Part shown: positions 30,730 to 61,836 of the stretch, piece by piece
How the letters are laid out: every line of letters starts with the position of its first letter
How positions within the stretch are numbered: position 1 is the first letter of the stretch
From: a virus
Direction: 5' to 3' (one strand)
Length of the DNA stretch: 64,000 bases
Virus record (IMG/VR): IMGVR_UViG_3300025326_000025
Position numbers and translations under genes: made by a program
Notes under the pieces: model-generated
What the model saw: only the letters and a program-made list of their open reading frames with translations
The model's database searches: none
Told to the model about the DNA's origin: nothing

Positions 30730-31004
30730 GGGGACAGCACTCCGCGCGCGCACGTGATGCGGTCGTAAGCGAGGGATGTCTCCATACCCTCGAGGTCGTA
30801 GAGAGCTAGATGGGTGTGTTCATGTCCCAGAGTATCCTCGATGCACTCGGCGGCATGCCCGATGAGAAGGATCCTCCGCCGCGTCGGGTGCGTCATCGCC
30901 ACGAGATTCATTCCCATGCGCCGATGCTCAATCCACCGGTCGAGAGCGGCGTTGAGGTCGCCCGGGTCCATCCGGTCCGACAGGACATTCACCGTGACGG
31001 TCAC
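30726..31004 (-). CDS. Minimal zincin-like HExxH protein (92 aa)
   Basis: DTLGHEHTHLAL. Confidence 0.55.
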   Translation of the reverse strand: MTVTVNVLSDRMDPGDLNAALDRWIEHRRMGMNLVAMTHPTRRRILLIGHAAECIEDTLGHEHTHLALYDLEGMETSLAYDRITCARGVLSP

Positions 31005-31468
31005 AGGGCCTTCACCTCGACGTCGCAGCAGGAGGTATCGCCGTACATCTTGTGGGCCGTGAGGACGATGACCTGATTGTCATCGCGCCAGATGATGCCC
31101 GTCATCGCGTCCAATACGCTACGGATGGCCTTGTCGAGGTCCGGACGCACGGTGGGCCACGTGCGCTTCTTCGGCACGCTTGGCGGCTTCTGGAACGCGA
31201 ATCCCAGTTCCACGATGACGGCCGTCCCCCTCGGGAATACGGGCAATTCCGGTTGCTCCGACTTCATGAGGAGACGGACCGCCTCGAGCGCCCGGTCCTG
31301 GACGTTCGTGTTCCAGGAGACGAGCTTCTCGCCGCCGACGGACGTGATATGGGCTCTCCCGGTCTTCTTGTTCACGAAAGCCCGGGTCGACCCCTTCGGG
31401 ACCGGCGTGCCGAATACCCGGAATCGGAGTCCTTCAAGTCGCAGTTTCTCGGCCGTCTCGTCGTCCAT
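31001..31468 (-). CDS. rusA: RusA family Holliday junction resolvase
   Basis: G.PVPKG, PDLDK..RSVLDAMTG..W.DD.QV..L.A.K.Y. Confidence 0.92.
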   Translation of the reverse strand: MDDETAEKLRLEGLRFRVFGTPVPKGSTRAFVNKKTGRAHITSVGGEKLVSWNTNVQDRALEAVRLLMKSEQPELPVFPRGTAVIVELGFAFQKPPSVPKKRTWPTVRPDLDKAIRSVLDAMTGIIWRDDNQVIVLTAHKMYGDTSCCDVEVKAL

Positions 31469-32745: not shown

Positions 32746-33027
32746 CTACGACTCCGGTCGGCCGCTGTACGACTTCGTGGTGTCGTGTCGGTGTCGTTTG
32801 AGTTTCTCAATCTCGTCGAGGGCCTCCTCGAGGCCGTTCGCGAGATGCTGCAATGCCTGCGATGTGTCGTACCGGGTGGAACAGAGCGCCGATCGAAGTT
32901 GCTCCACGGATGGTTTCTCCGGAAGGTGCTTCCTTTCGGCATCGTCCTCCGTACCGTAGTATTCCGGCTCGTCGTTCTCCAGGTCGTTCGCCCACGATTG
33001 CGCTTCGTCTACTTCTTCTTGTGCCAT
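32746..33027 (-). CDS. Acidic coiled-coil protein (93 aa)
   Basis: Start reassigned to MAQEEVDE, downstream of a TATA-GTTGCC promoter. Confidence 0.6.
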   Translation of the reverse strand: MAQEEVDEAQSWANDLENDEPEYYGTEDDAERKHLPEKPSVEQLRSALCSTRYDTSQALQHLANGLEEALDEIEKLKRHRHDTTKSYSGRPES

Positions 33028-33075
33028 ACCAGACACTCTCCGCCGCGAGAACATCGCGGTGAACGTCGTAAAGCC

Positions 33076-33090
33076 CGGCAACTATAAGAA
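33076..33090 (-). promoter_or_regulatory. TATA-GTTGCC promoter
   Basis: TTCTTATAGTTGCCG. Confidence 0.7.
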
Positions 33091-33096
33091 GGATGT

Positions 33097-33160
33097 GCCC
33101 GAGGAGGAGCGACCGGAGACCCACTTTTCCAGAGAAGTAACTCCGGCCTACACTACGGGC
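33097..33160 (-). ncRNA. Y-RNA-like structured RNA 2 (64 nt, minimal form)
   Basis: GCCC-GTAGTGTAG-G-CCGGAG-TTACTTCT-N14-CTCCGG-TCG-CTCC-TCCTC-GGGC; own promoter at 33176-33190. Confidence 0.75.
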
Positions 33161-33175
33161 GAACCGCGTAGAGCA

Positions 33176-33197
33176 CGGCAACTACTTAACGGTTGCG
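33176..33197 (-). promoter_or_regulatory. TATA-GTTGCC promoter with near-palindromic flanks, driving RNA 2
   Basis: CGCAAC-CGTTAAGTA-GTTGCC-G; TATA ends about 23 nt before the RNA 5' end. Confidence 0.72.
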
Positions 33198-33418
33198 TCC
33201 GCGTCGAACTCGGGACTGTCGGCGGAGATGGACGCGGTCTTCGGGTCGTACCCGTACTTCTTCGCGAGAACATCCATGTACTGCCGAACCTGTCCCCATG
33301 CGTCCCGAGCCGTGTTCTGCCACGATGGTCCATAGACGAGTACGGGCGTCGTCTGAGCATCGCGATAGAGGCCGATGAGTTTCGCATGTTCTTCTTCGGT
33401 GAGGCGGACGTGCTTCAT
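33182..33418 (-). CDS. Hypothetical protein (78 aa), translationally coupled to Ro60
   Basis: ATGA overlap with the TROVE stop; MKHVRLTEEEHAKL... Confidence 0.65.
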   Translation of the reverse strand: MKHVRLTEEEHAKLIGLYRDAQTTPVLVYGPSWQNTARDAWGQVRQYMDVLAKKYGYDPKTASISADSPEFDADATVK

Positions 33419-34995
33419 TCCGTCTCCGTCCCGGCGTCCTTCTTGTAGCTGCGTTCGCCCGCCTTCCGGATTGCCTCGAATACGACGCCCGGATCCTTCG
33501 TCTTCTCGTACGCGTCGAAGAAGCCCAAGACGCGGTCGGACCATCCAGCGAGCATGCACACGCCTCCCTCGGGGAACTGCGCCGTCCCGTACCCAGCGAG
33601 GTCGATCGAGTACAGGTAGGGCGTCTTGCCGATCTTCGAGACGTAGCGGTGGTACGACTCCGCAAGACTGTTCCCACGTGCCCCTACGCTCGAGTACATG
33701 GACGCGAACCTCGAGGTGACCTCGCTGTCGTAGCATTGCATGTCGCTGAAGATGACAATCCGGTCCACCGAGATGCCGTTCTCCGTGAGGTAGTCGATCG
33801 CCAGGAAGGCGTTCGTCGCCATCCCCACGTCCGTCGCACGGTATCTCTCGACGGCTTGCAGCAGGGATCCCGATTTCATCGTCGGGACCACCGCGAAATC
33901 CTCGGCGAACACGGACGTGATCGCCTTGTCGCAGATGTGCGTCGAGAGAGCCTGGAGGACGTTCGCCACGTCCTTCATCGACACGGAGGACTTGGCGCTG
34001 ACGTTCGCGTCCATGGAGTGACTGTTGTCCGAGGACAGGAAGGTCGTTCCGGCGAGGCGCGGGACGTTCACCACGCTGAGCCGCATCGCCGTCTCGAGGG
34101 CGTCCAACACCTCCGCAGACTGCGTGACGCTCTGGATCTCCCGGTAGGCCGAGAAGAACCGGAACGGGAACTGCTTCGACTTCCGGACGGCCTCCGGGTC
34201 CGTGAGGACCTTGAGGACCGGCGTGAGGTCGACGCCCTTCTGGATGAAGTTCCGGAGATTCCGCAGGAGTGCCATGTAACCCATGTTCGGGATGGCGGCC
34301 TCCCAGTTCTCCTTCGTGCTTCCTTTCGTGGAGATCGTGACCTCCCACGTGTACGGAGGCGTCAGGGTGCGTTCGAGGACCTGCTTGTAGAGGGCCGCGC
34401 GTTCCGGCATCTTCGGCTTCGGGTGCGTGATGCGCAGGACATCCCGGAGCTTGACTTCCCCGTCCCGGTCGTACTTCGCGAAGCCGTACGCGCCGAAGTT
34501 GTCGAAGGCGTCCGCGAGGCCGCGCTTGAGGGCGTTGCTCATCATGCCGGCCTTCGCGTGGTTCCCGATGTCCCCGAAGGCCTTCTTCCAAGTCGCCACG
34601 AGTTCCGTGAGCTGATCCGCGCGCGTGACGACCTTGGGTACGGTCGAGCGAACGAACGTTCGCGTCTCGGGATACCGGCACGCCTCAACGAGGAGGACGA
34701 GTGGGATGGTGCGAAGGTAGAGTTCCCGGCGCGCGTACACGGCGAGATCCAGGACGAACTGAGGATCCTCCTTCGCGACGACGCCGATGAGCCGCCGGAT
34801 CTCGTCATCACCCTGCGCCGTGGCGTCGTAGAACTTCGGCTCCCCGACGAGGGCCGTCGCGACGCGCGTGTAGAGTTCCATCTTCGGCTGCATCGCGAAG
34901 GCGAGTCCGCCCTCCTCATTCACCGTCGCGTCCGGTCTGTCCTGCACACTACGACGTGCCGTCGCCTTGGGGTTCTGTCGTGCCATGCTCATCAC
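33415..34995 (-). CDS. rsr: Ro60/TROVE domain ribonucleoprotein (Rsr ortholog)
   Basis: NEEGG.AF, LYLRTIP..LL, AKYDR...V.LRDVLRI.HPKP, TWEV.IS..G, YMALLRNLRN, SKQFPFRF..AY; vWA part D.S.SM...IFSDMQ; start between 34986 and 34995. Confidence 0.95.
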   Translation of the reverse strand: MMSMARQNPKATARRSVQDRPDATVNEEGGLAFAMQPKMELYTRVATALVGEPKFYDATAQGDDEIRRLIGVVAKEDPQFVLDLAVYARRELYLRTIPLVLLVEACRYPETRTFVRSTVPKVVTRADQLTELVATWKKAFGDIGNHAKAGMMSNALKRGLADAFDNFGAYGFAKYDRDGEVKLRDVLRITHPKPKMPERAALYKQVLERTLTPPYTWEVTISTKGSTKENWEAAIPNMGYMALLRNLRNFIQKGVDLTPVLKVLTDPEAVRKSKQFPFRFFSAYREIQSVTQSAEVLDALETAMRLSVVNVPRLAGTTFLSSDNSHSMDANVSAKSSVSMKDVANVLQALSTHICDKAITSVFAEDFAVVPTMKSGSLLQAVERYRATDVGMATNAFLAIDYLTENGISVDRIVIFSDMQCYDSEVTSRFASMYSSVGARGNSLAESYHRYVSKIGKTPYLYSIDLAGYGTAQFPEGGVCMLAGWSDRVLGFFDAYEKTKDPGVVFEAIRKAGERSYKKDAGTETE

Positions 34996-35016
34996 ATCTG
35001 GACGTTTCCGTCCCCC

Positions 35017-35030
35017 TGCAATTTAGAAGG
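35017..35030 (-). promoter_or_regulatory. TATA-like box for Ro60
   Basis: CCTTCTAAATTGCA about 26 nt upstream of GTG 34995. Confidence 0.45.
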
Positions 35031-35031
35031 G

Positions 35032-35119
35032 GGGCGAGGATGGTCGAGAACGGGTATTTGCCGGGGTTTCACCGACACCCTGTTAAAGCACAGAAGTATC
35101 CGTTCTCTACACTACGCCC
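35032..35119 (-). ncRNA. Y-RNA-like structured RNA 1 (88 nt, with two-hairpin insert)
   Basis: GGGC-GTAGTGTAG-A-GAACGG-ATACTTCT-N38-CCGTTC-TCG-ACCA-TCCTC-GCCC; same core as RNA 2 with compensatory changes. Confidence 0.78.
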
Positions 35120-35140: not shown

Positions 35141-35149
35141 GTATTTAAT
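35141..35149 (-). promoter_or_regulatory. TATA box for RNA 1
   Basis: ATTAAATAC ending about 22 nt upstream of the RNA 5' end. Confidence 0.6.
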
Positions 35150-35927: not shown

Positions 35928-35944
35928 CGGCAACTACAAGAAAG
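35928..35944 (-). promoter_or_regulatory. TATA-GTTGCC promoter
   Basis: CTTTCTTGTAGTTGCCG about 23 nt before ATG 35912. Confidence 0.65.
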
Positions 35945-48315: not shown

Positions 48316-48337
48316 CGGCAACTATTTAGAGGTTGCC
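48316..48337 (-). promoter_or_regulatory. Palindromic TATA-GTTGCC promoter/operator
   Basis: GGCAAC-CTCTAAATA-GTTGCC-G. Confidence 0.75.
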
Positions 48338-53106: not shown

Positions 53107-53128
53107 CGGCAACTATAAAGAACTTGCC
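53107..53128 (-). promoter_or_regulatory. Near-palindromic TATA-GTTGCC promoter
   Basis: GGCAAG-TTCTTTATA-GTTGCC-G, 25 nt before GTG 53089. Confidence 0.75.
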
Positions 53129-53790: not shown

Positions 53791-54522
53791 CTACCCCTCG
53801 TTCTCGATCCTCGGAGCTAGGATGTACGTCCCGGAGATGGCTTGCGCGCCTTCCCCGAACGAGAAGTCCGCGTACACGGGGTAGTCCTGACCAACGCGAA
53901 TTGTGAGGCGCGTCCCGTCGGGGAGAGCGTTCGCGAAGGCCGATACGTAGTCGATGGGAAGAAGGGTGCGGACGGCGGTCTTCGTCTCGACGCCGTAGAC
54001 GTGATGCTCCACGGTGTCCGCGTCGCCCTCCGCCTCGAACACGACATCCGGCGGATTCGTCCGGATGGCGATGCAATCCGACACGAGACTGGACGCCTTG
54101 ATGGCGATCCGTATCTCGTCCGGGCTCACCTGGAACGTCTCGGGGAGCTTCACGTTCGGGACCTTCGGATCGGGGAAGGCCTTGTTGTCGATGACGCCCA
54201 TCTTCCGACGCGTGTTCCCCACCTTGGCTTGTATGCGCCCGTCCACGATTTCGGCCTCGAAGGAACCGTCCCCCTGCAATGACAGGACCTCGGACATCTT
54301 GTCGAGGTCCAAGCCAATCTCCTCCTTGTCAAGGGCCGAATACGTGTCGAAGGAGGCCCGCGGGATCGCCATGTCGATGAGACACACATGCGCCGGGTCC
54401 ACGACACGGATGCGCGCGCCGTCTGGGTCGAACGTGAACTTCGCCTCGTCGACCGCGCACGAGAGTATCTTCACGACGGACGCGAGGCGTTTCCGGTCAA
54501 TCTTGAACTTCATATCGATCAC
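53791..54522 (-). CDS. pcn: PCNA sliding clamp
   Basis: VDEAKF....G.....VDP.HV.LI, EIG.DL..., G..YP, YILAPRIE C-terminus. Confidence 0.96.
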   Translation of the reverse strand: MIDMKFKIDRKRLASVVKILSCAVDEAKFTFDPDGARIRVVDPAHVCLIDMAIPRASFDTYSALDKEEIGLDLDKMSEVLSLQGDGSFEAEIVDGRIQAKVGNTRRKMGVIDNKAFPDPKVPNVKLPETFQVSPDEIRIAIKASSLVSDCIAIRTNPPDVVFEAEGDADTVEHHVYGVETKTAVRTLLPIDYVSAFANALPDGTRLTIRVGQDYPVYADFSFGEGAQAISGTYILAPRIENEG

Positions 54523-54741: not shown

Positions 54742-54755
54742 GGCAACTATTTAGA
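54742..54755 (-). promoter_or_regulatory. TATA-GTTGCC promoter
   Basis: TCTAAATAGTTGCC. Confidence 0.72.
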
Positions 54756-55418
54756 CGTATCGGGCTCGTCCCAGTCCACCCAGTCCATCTCCCGGACGGA
54801 AAGGAGCCAATCCTCTAGAAGATGCGGCTCTGGGGGGTCGTCCGGAAGACGCGACAGTTCGTGGGCGATCTTCATCTTCAAGATGAGCACGGATACCTCC
54901 TCCGGCGTCGTAACGGACGTCGCTTTGAACTCGATCCGTCCCTCCATCAAGAGCGTGATGCCCATCTGGACGGTTCGCGCGATGATGTTCAGGCGCTTGA
55001 CCGATGTGTCCTTACCGGTCGCGATGTACTTCTCGACGTTCTTCCGCGCGAGTCCTTGCAGACTTCCGTAGCACCGCTTCGAGAAGTTTCGTTCGGAGAT
55101 GCGGCGCAAGCTCGCGAGGAGATCGCGGCTGTCGTTGTCCGTCGTCAGGACGATTGGTGAGAACACGCCCCATAGATGATTCACGTTCCCGTCGAGGACC
55201 TGCTCGACGACGCGCCCAATCTCGTGCGTCTGGATGTCGTACTTCATCGTGTCGGACGAATCGACACGGTTCGCGAACCTCGGAATACCTCGCCCGAGAA
55301 GGAGGTGGCGTGTCGGAACTTGAACGGCCTCGTACACGTCGATGTCCGATCCCTCGTGATTCATCCCCCAAAGATGGGATCCAACCGATGTCTTCCACAG
55401 AACTTTCACGGCCATCAT
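54747..55418 (-). CDS. Pol-beta superfamily nucleotidyltransferase (RlaP/YcgL-like)
   Basis: VGSHLWG....GSDIDV (GS-x10-DxD), HE.G......L.GN.N....VFSP. Confidence 0.85.
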   Translation of the reverse strand: MMAVKVLWKTSVGSHLWGMNHEGSDIDVYEAVQVPTRHLLLGRGIPRFANRVDSSDTMKYDIQTHEIGRVVEQVLDGNVNHLWGVFSPIVLTTDNDSRDLLASLRRISERNFSKRCYGSLQGLARKNVEKYIATGKDTSVKRLNIIARTVQMGITLLMEGRIEFKATSVTTPEEVSVLILKMKIAHELSRLPDDPPEPHLLEDWLLSVREMDWVDWDEPDTSK

Positions 55419-56290
55419 GTTATCTTCCTCGGAAACTCATGGTGTACTTTCCCGTCAAGCATGCCGCATCCCCACGTGGAGCGGCACTCCGGATGTCCAC
55501 ACGTTCCGTGCCGATTCCCGCCCGTCTGTTTGAAGAAGAACGGCACGCCCGCGACGGCGCATTGGTGACGGATGGAACGGAACCACGCTGGGTCGGTCGG
55601 GCGAGGATGCGGGTCGGATTCGCCGCCCGCGATGATCCACTCGATGTCGCGGAGAAGACTGCCTAGATACACGGCGTCGGCGTTCACTCGCACTCCGGTC
55701 GCGAACTCTACCATCCAGTCTCCAAGTCTCCTGCTGAAATCAATCGGCCCCAACAGCGGCTCGCACGACAGGAAGTGCACGACCGCCGGTACGGCGACGA
55801 GTTGTGGAATGCGTATCTCCGCATACTTCTGATTCTCGACGCTCGTGCCGAGCCAGACGTTCGGCCACGGCCATCCCCGAAGCGCATGCGGTTCTGCGCC
55901 AATCGGCTGCGCCCACTCATGCACACCACAAGTAAAGCACGTCTGCGGCAGATGCTCCGCAATCCACTCCGGCCTCTTCGTCAGGATGAGGAACGTATGC
56001 TGAGGACAGGACCGGATGACCTCCCACCATTCGTCCCTCCATTGGTCACACGTCGGATGGAAGAAATCCCCCATGCTCAGGGTGAAGATCCGCTTCGGTT
56101 CCTTCCAGAGGCGCGGGTCCTGCTTCGGCTTCCCGCGCCATTTCGTCTCCCGTACGACCGTGAAGGGAAGGCCCCATCGCTCCATCAGGCGTTCCGCGTA
56201 ACAGTTCGTGCAGCCGCGACTCACCTTGTTGCACCCCCACGCGGGGTTCCACGTACCGTCGGACCATTCGATCGCGGTGTGTTCACCCAT
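55415..56290 (-). CDS. DUF5131 (phage Gp37/Gp68) protein
   Basis: T.IEW.D.TWNP..GC.KVS.GC.NCYAE, SMGD.FH, LTKRP, NVWLGTSVE, SCEPLLG, W.I.GGES, VPFFFKQ. Confidence 0.93.
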   Translation of the reverse strand: MGEHTAIEWSDGTWNPAWGCNKVSRGCTNCYAERLMERWGLPFTVVRETKWRGKPKQDPRLWKEPKRIFTLSMGDFFHPTCDQWRDEWWEVIRSCPQHTFLILTKRPEWIAEHLPQTCFTCGVHEWAQPIGAEPHALRGWPWPNVWLGTSVENQKYAEIRIPQLVAVPAVVHFLSCEPLLGPIDFSRRLGDWMVEFATGVRVNADAVYLGSLLRDIEWIIAGGESDPHPRPTDPAWFRSIRHQCAVAGVPFFFKQTGGNRHGTCGHPECRSTWGCGMLDGKVHHEFPRKIT

Positions 56291-56301
56291 CGCCTCACCC
56301 G

Positions 56302-56574
56302 CTATCGCGGCACTCCGAGGTCCTTCGCGAACCAGATGGCGGTCCGGTTCTCCCAAGCTATCTGCTCGGCCTGTACGATGAACTGAGGCTTGTCGTGCGT
56401 CTCCATCGCGTCCCGGATGGCGTGGCGGAGGATGCTCACGACGATCAGCATCTCGAACCCCGTCCATCCCTGCTTCGCGCACGCGTTCGCGAACTCCGAG
56501 ACGGCCGCAATCAGCGGCGTGGCGTTACGTTGGTCGCCGACTCTCTCCGGGGCCCGTGGGACCTTGATCTTCAT
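56302..56574 (-). CDS. Hypothetical protein (90 aa)
   Basis: Helical ORF packed between neighbours. Confidence 0.6.
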   Translation of the reverse strand: MKIKVPRAPERVGDQRNATPLIAAVSEFANACAKQGWTGFEMLIVVSILRHAIRDAMETHDKPQFIVQAEQIAWENRTAIWFAKDLGVPR

Positions 56575-61811: not shown

Positions 61812-61836
61812 TCGGCAACTATTTAGAAGTTGCCGA
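61812..61836 (-). promoter_or_regulatory. Perfect palindromic TATA-GTTGCC promoter/operator
   Basis: TCGGCAAC-TTCTAAATA-GTTGCCGA, 25 nt before ATG 61795. Confidence 0.8.

Follow-up and report, generated by a model that had tools for sequence, protein, structure and literature searches.

The window analysed here, the whole 64,000-nucleotide stretch of IMG/VR virus record IMGVR_UViG_3300025326_000025, carries a gene for a Ro60-like protein with a short, structured RNA sequence on either side of it. Particles of Ro60 and Y RNA have been studied in depth in animals and a few bacteria. The viral RNA partners of Ro60 are poorly catalogued, and the published passages that were searched hold no archaeal example. 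The locus therefore raises the question of whether the two sequences, RNA 1 and RNA 2, are partner RNAs of the virus's own Ro60, and of what is to be made of the extra piece found in the larger one, which a preliminary description had read as resembling the elbow of a tRNA.

RNA 1 (88 nt, 35032–35119) and RNA 2 (64 nt, 33097–33160) were delimited from the sequence, a covariance model and the predicted fold. Both lie on the minus strand, as does the TROVE/Ro60 gene between them. RNA 1 is upstream, its 3′ end 36 nt from the Ro60 start codon, and RNA 2 starts 254 nt downstream of the TROVE open reading frame. Read from 5′ to 3′, the two have a common plan, in which a 4-bp terminal stem is followed by GUAGUGUAG, a 7-bp helix, the motif WUACUUC(U) and a variable part, and then by the 3′ strand of the helix, CG-N4-UCCUC and the 3′ strand of the terminal stem. 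The layout is GGGC / GUAGUGUAG / AGAACGG / AUACUUCU / 38-nt insert / CCGUUCU / CGACCAUCCUC / GCCC in RNA 1, and GCCC / GUAGUGUAG / GCCGGAG / UUACUUCU / 14-nt loop / CUCCGGU / CGCUCCUCCUC / GGGC in RNA 2. The helices differ throughout, both in the terminal stem (GGGC/GCCC versus GCCC/GGGC) and in the inner one (AGAACGG versus GCCGGAG). The common 24-nt 5′ motif occurs exactly twice in the 64-kb window, where no occurrence is expected.

The minimum free energy of the whole RNA 1 fold is −34.5 kcal/mol (z −3.16; 1 of 200 shuffles as good) and that of the whole RNA 2 fold is −26.1 kcal/mol (z −2.0; 8 of 200 as good). Because the whole RNAs fold better than shuffled sequences, the scaffold lies beyond chance. 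Rfam scans, at the gathering threshold and at E ≤ 10, returned no match on either RNA. A match to the Gurken model close to RNA 2 (E 8.9) was rejected as a chance hairpin in the promoter region of RNA 2. Two more small hairpins lie in the interval between RNA 1 and the Ro60 start (35001–35031, minus strand): CCCCCC...GGGGG overlaps the 3′ end of RNA 1, and GACG-GAAA-CGUC sits 6 nt before the Ro60 GTG. These could play a part in termination, processing or translation control.

The part that the two RNAs have in common, hereafter the handle, was modelled from relatives. A covariance model (R1), built from 13 minimal-form relatives with the window left out, found exactly two sites on the two strands of the window, RNA 1 (38.1 bits, E 2.5e-7) and RNA 2 (33.7 bits, E 2.9e-6), each over the full length of the model. 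At loci selected for Ro60 it found 97 sites, 96 of which are on the Ro60 strand. Across the 59 sequences aligned to the covariance model, 96% pairing is seen in the inner 7-bp helix, and each of its seven pairs shows changes in both partners. The two helices together give a covariation score of 0.739, compared with 0.222 for shuffles (0 of 500 as good) and no more than 0.295 when partners are slid. The outer terminal stem is 57% paired in a fixed-register count of the 59 sequences, a value that is diluted because the register varies by about one base; MAFFT alignments likewise do not place this stem in one register, and give a 3′ loop of 10–13 nt. In a test that takes in this outer stem as well, with 3′ strands swapped between partners, perfect pairing (12/12) fell from 37% of elements with their own strands to 3.2%. 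Within the handle, the columns GUAG and UACUU are invariant.

Loci for comparison came from Ro60 protein searches of viral contigs, metagenomes (the closest relatives being 58–64% identical) and species genomes. The pattern GTAG-N6-9-WTACTTY occurs 157 times in the Ro60 loci and motif-scan loci, with the species-genome loci not counted. Among the closest relatives shown, all copies of the motif but one are on the Ro60 strand, often in arrays, and two loci (L015 and L022) have four or five copies upstream of Ro60. More than 100 loci from viruses, metagenomes and MAGs, together with cultured phages, have the scaffold next to a Ro60 gene, an association that is largely by design because most loci were chosen by Ro60 homology; only a scan for the motif alone is independent. 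That scan of viral contigs gave 25 loci, and a TROVE gene lies alongside in eight of them, including every well-formed scaffold. We estimate that the remaining motif-only loci are few enough to be chance matches of a 16-base pattern.

The cultured phages broaden this picture. In Xanthomonas phage Olaya (L162 2000–2453), a minimal copy (48.8 bits) and two tRNA-like ones lie upstream of the TROVE gene, and Caulobacter phage CcrColossus (L159 1214–2347) has several copies next to its own. Weak candidates are found next to the TROVE genes of crAss001 (L158 4020–4101) and of the haloarchaeal virus HGTV-1 (L157 2350–2425), the latter keeping the helix and AUACUUC without GUAG. No such RNAs are annotated in the stretches by TROVE in the records of these four viruses, which for HGTV-1 means a 6.4-kb stretch around the gene. 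Judged by these matches, the handle family is mostly virus-borne and is not confined to uncultured or archaeal viruses.

The best explanation for what is observed, a covarying scaffold that lies on the Ro60 strand and accompanies Ro60 genes, is, we believe with good confidence, that RNA 1 and RNA 2 are Y-like partner RNAs of the virus's own Ro60, which share a handle and carry a swappable slot above it. We infer that they bind Ro60 and are transcribed separately, and they may differ in function. The handle, in which the 5′ and 3′ ends pair below a conserved internal loop (GUAGUGUAG opposite CG-N4-UCCUC), the 7-bp helix and single-stranded WUACUUC, is likely to be the Ro60-binding module. The slot would be a cassette whose content in relatives ranges from almost nothing through one or two plain hairpins and a lone T arm to a full tRNA-like module. 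RNA 1 would then be a mid-sized form, with a weak first hairpin and a stable second hairpin of a tetraloop-hairpin class, and RNA 2 a minimal form, the bare handle. By analogy with bacterial Y RNAs (PMC4201824; 10.1101/312249), both may sit on Ro60 and control access to its ring, with the apical part of RNA 1 offering a surface for another factor. The earlier suggestion of two ribonucleoproteins, one with a tethering RNA and one with a gate-only RNA, is a reasonable extrapolation from Y RNA biology.

The Ro60/TROVE gene itself (33415–34995, minus strand) encodes 526 amino acids from a GTG, with an ATG at 34986. Its product matches the Pfam TROVE model (5e-29); the match to vWA_Ro60 (2.6e-5, 24.7 bits) falls below the 27.7-bit cut-off of that model. 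There are 1217 homologues at E ≤ 1e-50, of which two proteins (P0002 and P0003) are 73% identical to that of the window. The gene is followed by a 78-codon open reading frame (33182–33418, minus strand) whose ATG overlaps the Ro60 stop (ATGA). Its product had no Pfam match, and the frame appears to be translationally coupled to Ro60. Two other loci (L024 and L122) also have a small open reading frame just after Ro60, with an N-terminus that looks ribbon-helix-helix-like by eye. About 2 kb downstream of the Ro60 block lies a gene for a RusA-family Holliday junction resolvase (PF05866, 1e-14; 31001–31468, minus strand).

Some 26 nt upstream of each RNA there seems to be a separate archaeal-type TATA box. 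For RNA 1 this is TTAAATA (35142–35148, minus strand), centred about 26 nt from the 5′ end, and the block between the box and the RNA is conserved upstream of its positional orthologues in L015, L022 and L024. For RNA 2 it is part of TTAAGTAGTTGCCG (33176–33189, minus strand), about 26 nt upstream, which joins a TATA-like heptamer (TTAAGTA, 33189–33183) to a virus-specific motif and overlaps the stop codon of the 78-codon frame. The window has 11 occurrences of that motif, TWWRTAGTTGCCG, where 2.0 are expected; most are on the coding strand and just upstream of genes, and the sites include 33076–33088, 33176–33188, 35928–35940, 48316–48328, 53107–53119 and 61813–61825. A direct repeat (33058–33101 and 33158–33201) amounts to two copies of it, 100 nt apart, the downstream one preceding the next gene. 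TWWRTAGTTGCCG is likely to be a virus-specific promoter made up of a TATA-like box and a conserved downstream block. Archaeal promoters have a TATA box at this distance, and the boxes before RNA 1 and RNA 2 are accordingly putative promoters.

The main rival for RNA 1 starts from its position: with just 36 nt separating its 3′ end from the Ro60 start codon, it might belong to the mRNA leader, acting in cis as an operator through which Ro60 controls its own expression, with RNA 2 a 3′ element of a transcript spanning Ro60 and the 78-codon frame. The shared strand and the two small hairpins in the intervening sequence agree with this, and there is a precedent for co-transcription in Mycobacterium smegmatis, where YrlA and YrlB come from one precursor upstream of rsr (PMC4201824). 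However, the relatives have arrays of two to seven copies, either up- or downstream of Ro60, in which each unit has a covarying terminal stem of its own, and such self-closed units are typical of excised small RNAs. Moreover, the promoter-like motif that this virus has before protein genes also stands ahead of RNA 2, and the tRNA-like versions cannot be simple operators. We regard a leader element as unlikely, and continue with RNA 1 and RNA 2 as Y-like partners of Ro60.

What distinguishes the two RNAs is the slot above the handle, and its content in relatives proved varied. Among 86 distinct elements that were parsed, the largest class has a T arm within an insert of at least 70 nt (tRNA-like, 37/86) and six have a T arm only; a further 21 have other inserts of 26–69 nt, the class of RNA 1, 17 are minimal (≤25 nt), the class of RNA 2, and five have other inserts of at least 70 nt. 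Inspected members of the tRNA-like class have a T arm, an acceptor-like hairpin and a D arm, in that order, and in the long-form relatives the T and D arms run in the tRNA sense on the Ro60 strand. Minimal and T-containing forms are mixed in 9 of the 20 multi-element loci. The most extensive example shown here, L009 4694–5650 (IMGVR_UViG_3300017971_000194), has seven tandem RNAs sharing the handle directly downstream of Ro60, two minimal forms and then five with different tRNA-like modules. As the slot may hold nothing, hairpins or a tRNA-like module, the pairing of a minimal with a larger form is a general pattern. The proposal that the window encodes two isoforms thus stands as regards the shared scaffold, the differing apical parts and the recurrence of such pairs at these loci and in phages, but not as regards an elbow-like insert.

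Two further features of these loci were seen in passing. A tRNA-shaped sequence lies inside the Y-like array at L015 2060–2131, with equivalents in L014 and L022; its T arm is canonical (GCGGUUCGAUUCCGC) and its acceptor-like stem is 7 bp long. Furthermore, the loops of minimal forms (including that of the window, 33119–33132) and the starts of long inserts often show YUGGA(A/U) or UGAAA soon after WUACUUC. This element, which is absent from RNA 1, may be a further conserved part of the handle.

The variable insert of RNA 1 (38 nt, 35054–35091, minus strand) was defined from the sequence and falls in an insert state of the covariance-model alignment. RNAfold places two hairpins here, H1 (CUGU-GCUUUA-ACAG, 35080–35093, minus strand), whose 5′ CU is the last two bases of the conserved WUACUUCU, and H2 (UGUCGG-UGAAACC-CCGGCA, 35059–35077, minus strand), which has 6 bp including one U.G pair and is followed by AAUAC. 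Both are present in the minimum free energy and the centroid structures of the whole RNA. In RNA 2, the same slot is 14 nt long and purine-rich (CUGGAAAAGUGGGU, 33132–33119). The letters and the fold therefore agree with the preliminary description in so far as it set two hairpins in RNA 1 against a 14-nt loop in RNA 2. The insert (35050–35096) folds no better than its shuffles (z −0.72; 39 of 200 as good), and the bare 38 nt give z +0.16. Since the hairpins are unremarkable on energy alone, any significance must come from comparison with relatives.

In that comparison the two hairpins fared differently. Neither an orthologue of H1 nor covariation in it was found in the relatives; its CUUUAAC recurs in the first hairpin of two distant forms that have two hairpins (L098 and L116), which is a hint only. 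H2 has an orthologue in a single locus, L024, whose Ro60 is 54% identical and where the stem UGUCGGG/CCCGGCA is capped by a GAAA tetraloop. Support for H2 as a predicted element comes solely from this comparison with relatives, and H1 has no independent support. A scan of viral contigs for TGTCGGNGAAAC(N)CCGGCA gave 16 matches, all of them unrelated and apparently coding, and none in a Y-like context. That the stem is kept identical in L024 hints at sequence-specific recognition. More generally, 14 of the 27 mid-sized inserts have a hairpin with a GAAA, UUCG or GUAA tetraloop nearest the 3′ helix strand. These 14 hairpins have a stem of 3–9 bp and then a tail of 0–19 nt (0–6 nt in 12 of them), and their stems vary by lineage (GCCC/GGGC, ACCC/GGGU, GGUGC/GCACC and GUCGGG/CCCGGC).

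Could H2 instead be a T-loop-like element, so that RNA 1 would mimic a tRNA elbow and recruit tRNA-binding or RNA-repair factors, with RNA 2 as the gate-only ligand? With U at position 1, a purine at 4, A at 5 and a G-C closure, the loop UGAAACC is compatible with a minimal T-loop motif, and real T arms occupy the same slot in the long forms of relatives. In L022 the positional orthologue of RNA 1 includes a true T arm, CGGG-UUCAAAC-CCCG, with a UUCG hairpin after it, and the loss of one base (UUC to UG) would convert a loop of this type into that of the window. The positional orthologue in L015, directly upstream of Ro60, likewise combines a T arm with a V hairpin before it and a UUCG hairpin after it. 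Because these orthologues carry true T arms, the lineage of RNA 1 probably lost or replaced one.

The details of H2 nevertheless point away from a T loop. The family has 38 hairpins that fit a T-loop pattern with a 5-bp stem. Their loops all read UUC(R)A; the UGAAACC of the window is the single outlier, with only U1, A4 and A5 in common with a T loop. UGAAA and the G-C closure do fit the letters of a five-base T loop. This minimal pattern is common by chance, as roughly 1 random loop in 16 would have U1 and A5; the structure that RNAfold favours here is a bulged AAAC loop. The sole orthologue of H2, in L024, has the same stem with a 4-nt GAAA loop, so the loop of H2 is not conserved as a 7-nt U..RA T loop. 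The 38-nt insert has no D arm and no GG partner, and without a D arm there is nothing with which an elbow could be built; ARAGORN and the Rfam tRNA and YrlA models were silent at RNA 1 and RNA 2, and neither has a T or a D arm. Lastly, H2 sits exactly where the tetraloop hairpins with covarying stems are found in the mid-sized inserts, and therefore belongs with that class of plain, stable hairpins. We consider an elbow mimic very unlikely; the evidence says that the extra piece of RNA 1 is an ordinary hairpin pair, as far as sequence and predicted fold can tell.

That one or both copies are decayed, non-functional remnants of once tRNA-like Y RNAs is the least probable reading of all, for although RNA 1 is without the T/AS/D module of its closest relatives (L014–L021 and L057) and comparison lends nothing to H1, both copies keep every conserved scaffold position and have perfect or near-perfect helices of differing sequence, minimal and mid-sized forms recur in many lineages, and the H2 stem is identical in L024 despite 54% Ro60 identity.

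Read as Y-like partners of Ro60, the two RNAs are best compared with the bacterial and phage YrlA RNAs (RF02553; PMC4201824; 10.1101/312249), which likewise lie beside a Ro60/TROVE gene, within about 2 kb and on the same strand, and have paired ends, a conserved motif in the 5′ strand and then a variable module. The permuted tRNA mimic of YrlA (T arm, acceptor-like hairpin, D arm) is the same module that is found in relatives of this virus. The Rfam YrlA model scores the long forms of L009 at 36–37 bits (E ~3e-6), against a gathering score of 69 bits, and its 5′ consensus 'CgaAUGCuu' aligns to 'CGGAUACUU' in relatives, that is, to the helix and AUACUU. Given that the model matches long-form relatives, the handle family is related to published YrlA. 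There was no match to it at E ≤ 10 between positions 33000 and 37000 of the window, and a search of control genomes for canonical YrlA gave none above the cut-off.

The differences from YrlA are equally clear. [quoted passage not shown] Three parts of the handle, the 5′ GUAGYGUAG, the 3′ CG-N-UUCUC and the outer terminal stem, lie outside the Rfam YrlA model, and the host of this virus, unlike those of YrlA, is probably archaeal. By these sequence comparisons RNA 1 and RNA 2 are not YrlA proper, and are members of a handle-defined, mostly virus-borne relative of it. Rfam does not cover the non-tRNA forms of this family.

Chen et al. (2014, PMC4201824) reported that bacterial species have two or more Y RNAs each, of which one resembles tRNA and another is a simple hairpin. 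The second of these, YrlB or Yrn2 in Salmonella, Mycobacterium and Deinococcus (PMC4201824), is a smaller Ro60-bound RNA near the Ro60 gene that has no full tRNA mimic, and it provides a published precedent, likened here by architecture, for one elaborate and one simple Y RNA per Ro60. RNA 2 differs from YrlB in its 14-nt purine-rich loop and in sharing the whole of its handle with RNA 1. Metazoan Y RNAs are modular in the same way, with an end-formed Ro60-binding stem and a variable loop for other factors, and several Y RNA species are available to one Ro60, as here. However, their Ro60 site, GGUCCGA in a bulged helix, has no similarity in the window RNAs, which are not transcribed by Pol III and whose genes adjoin that of Ro60. 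In broad terms, both window RNAs have the defining trait of a Y RNA, a stem of paired ends with a conserved predicted protein-binding region, below a variable module.

An archaeal host is plausible for this virus. It has a PCNA-type sliding clamp (PF00705, 3e-7; 53791–54522, minus strand); the closest Ro60 from a species genome (56% identical) is on a contig binned with a Methanobacteriota MAG; and among the phage and virus matches listed (40 of 108, a spread sample), the TROVE protein of HGTV-1 has the lowest E-value (5e-58). Other archaeal elements that, like this one, carry a TROVE protein are HGTV-1, the Asgard 'Nidhogg' viruses (10.1101/2021.07.29.454249) and Borgs (PMC11208441), and the Nidhogg and Borg passages searched describe the protein only, with no partner RNA. 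Adjoining the PCNA gene, about 20 kb from Ro60, is a gene for an RlaP-family nucleotidyltransferase (PF10127, 1.7e-14; 54747–55418, minus strand), a family described as working with RNA ligases in RNA repair (PMC7824862). This fits a role of the Ro60 module in RNA repair or RNA quality control. Next to the PCNA and RlaP genes there is also a DUF5131 gene (55415–56482).

The picture of one minimal and one larger RNA is sound, and is not new in principle, as it follows the published YrlA/YrlB and Yrn1/Yrn2 pattern (PMC4201824). The locus itself is a compact pair of RNAs with a common handle that differ only apically, and so amounts to a natural experiment on the handle (Ro60 binding) versus the variable part (partner choice or gating). 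Its wider value lies in the family more than in the pair, with the handle found beside Ro60 in more than 100 loci, including cultured phages that have no RNA annotated in the stretches examined. We would raise, as a tentative and rather doubtful possibility, that the handle (GUAGYGUAG ... WUACUUC ... CG-N-UUCUC) marks a large, undescribed, virus-borne branch of Y RNAs with a swappable apical cassette, and that in archaeal viruses, where PNPase is not known to occur, forms without a tRNA mimic, like RNA 1, use the sequence-conserved H2 to tether Ro60 to a partner from the archaeon or the virus. If that were true, no earlier Y RNA would have been linked to the Archaea, and RNA 2, at 64 nt, would be a naturally occurring minimal ligand of Ro60.
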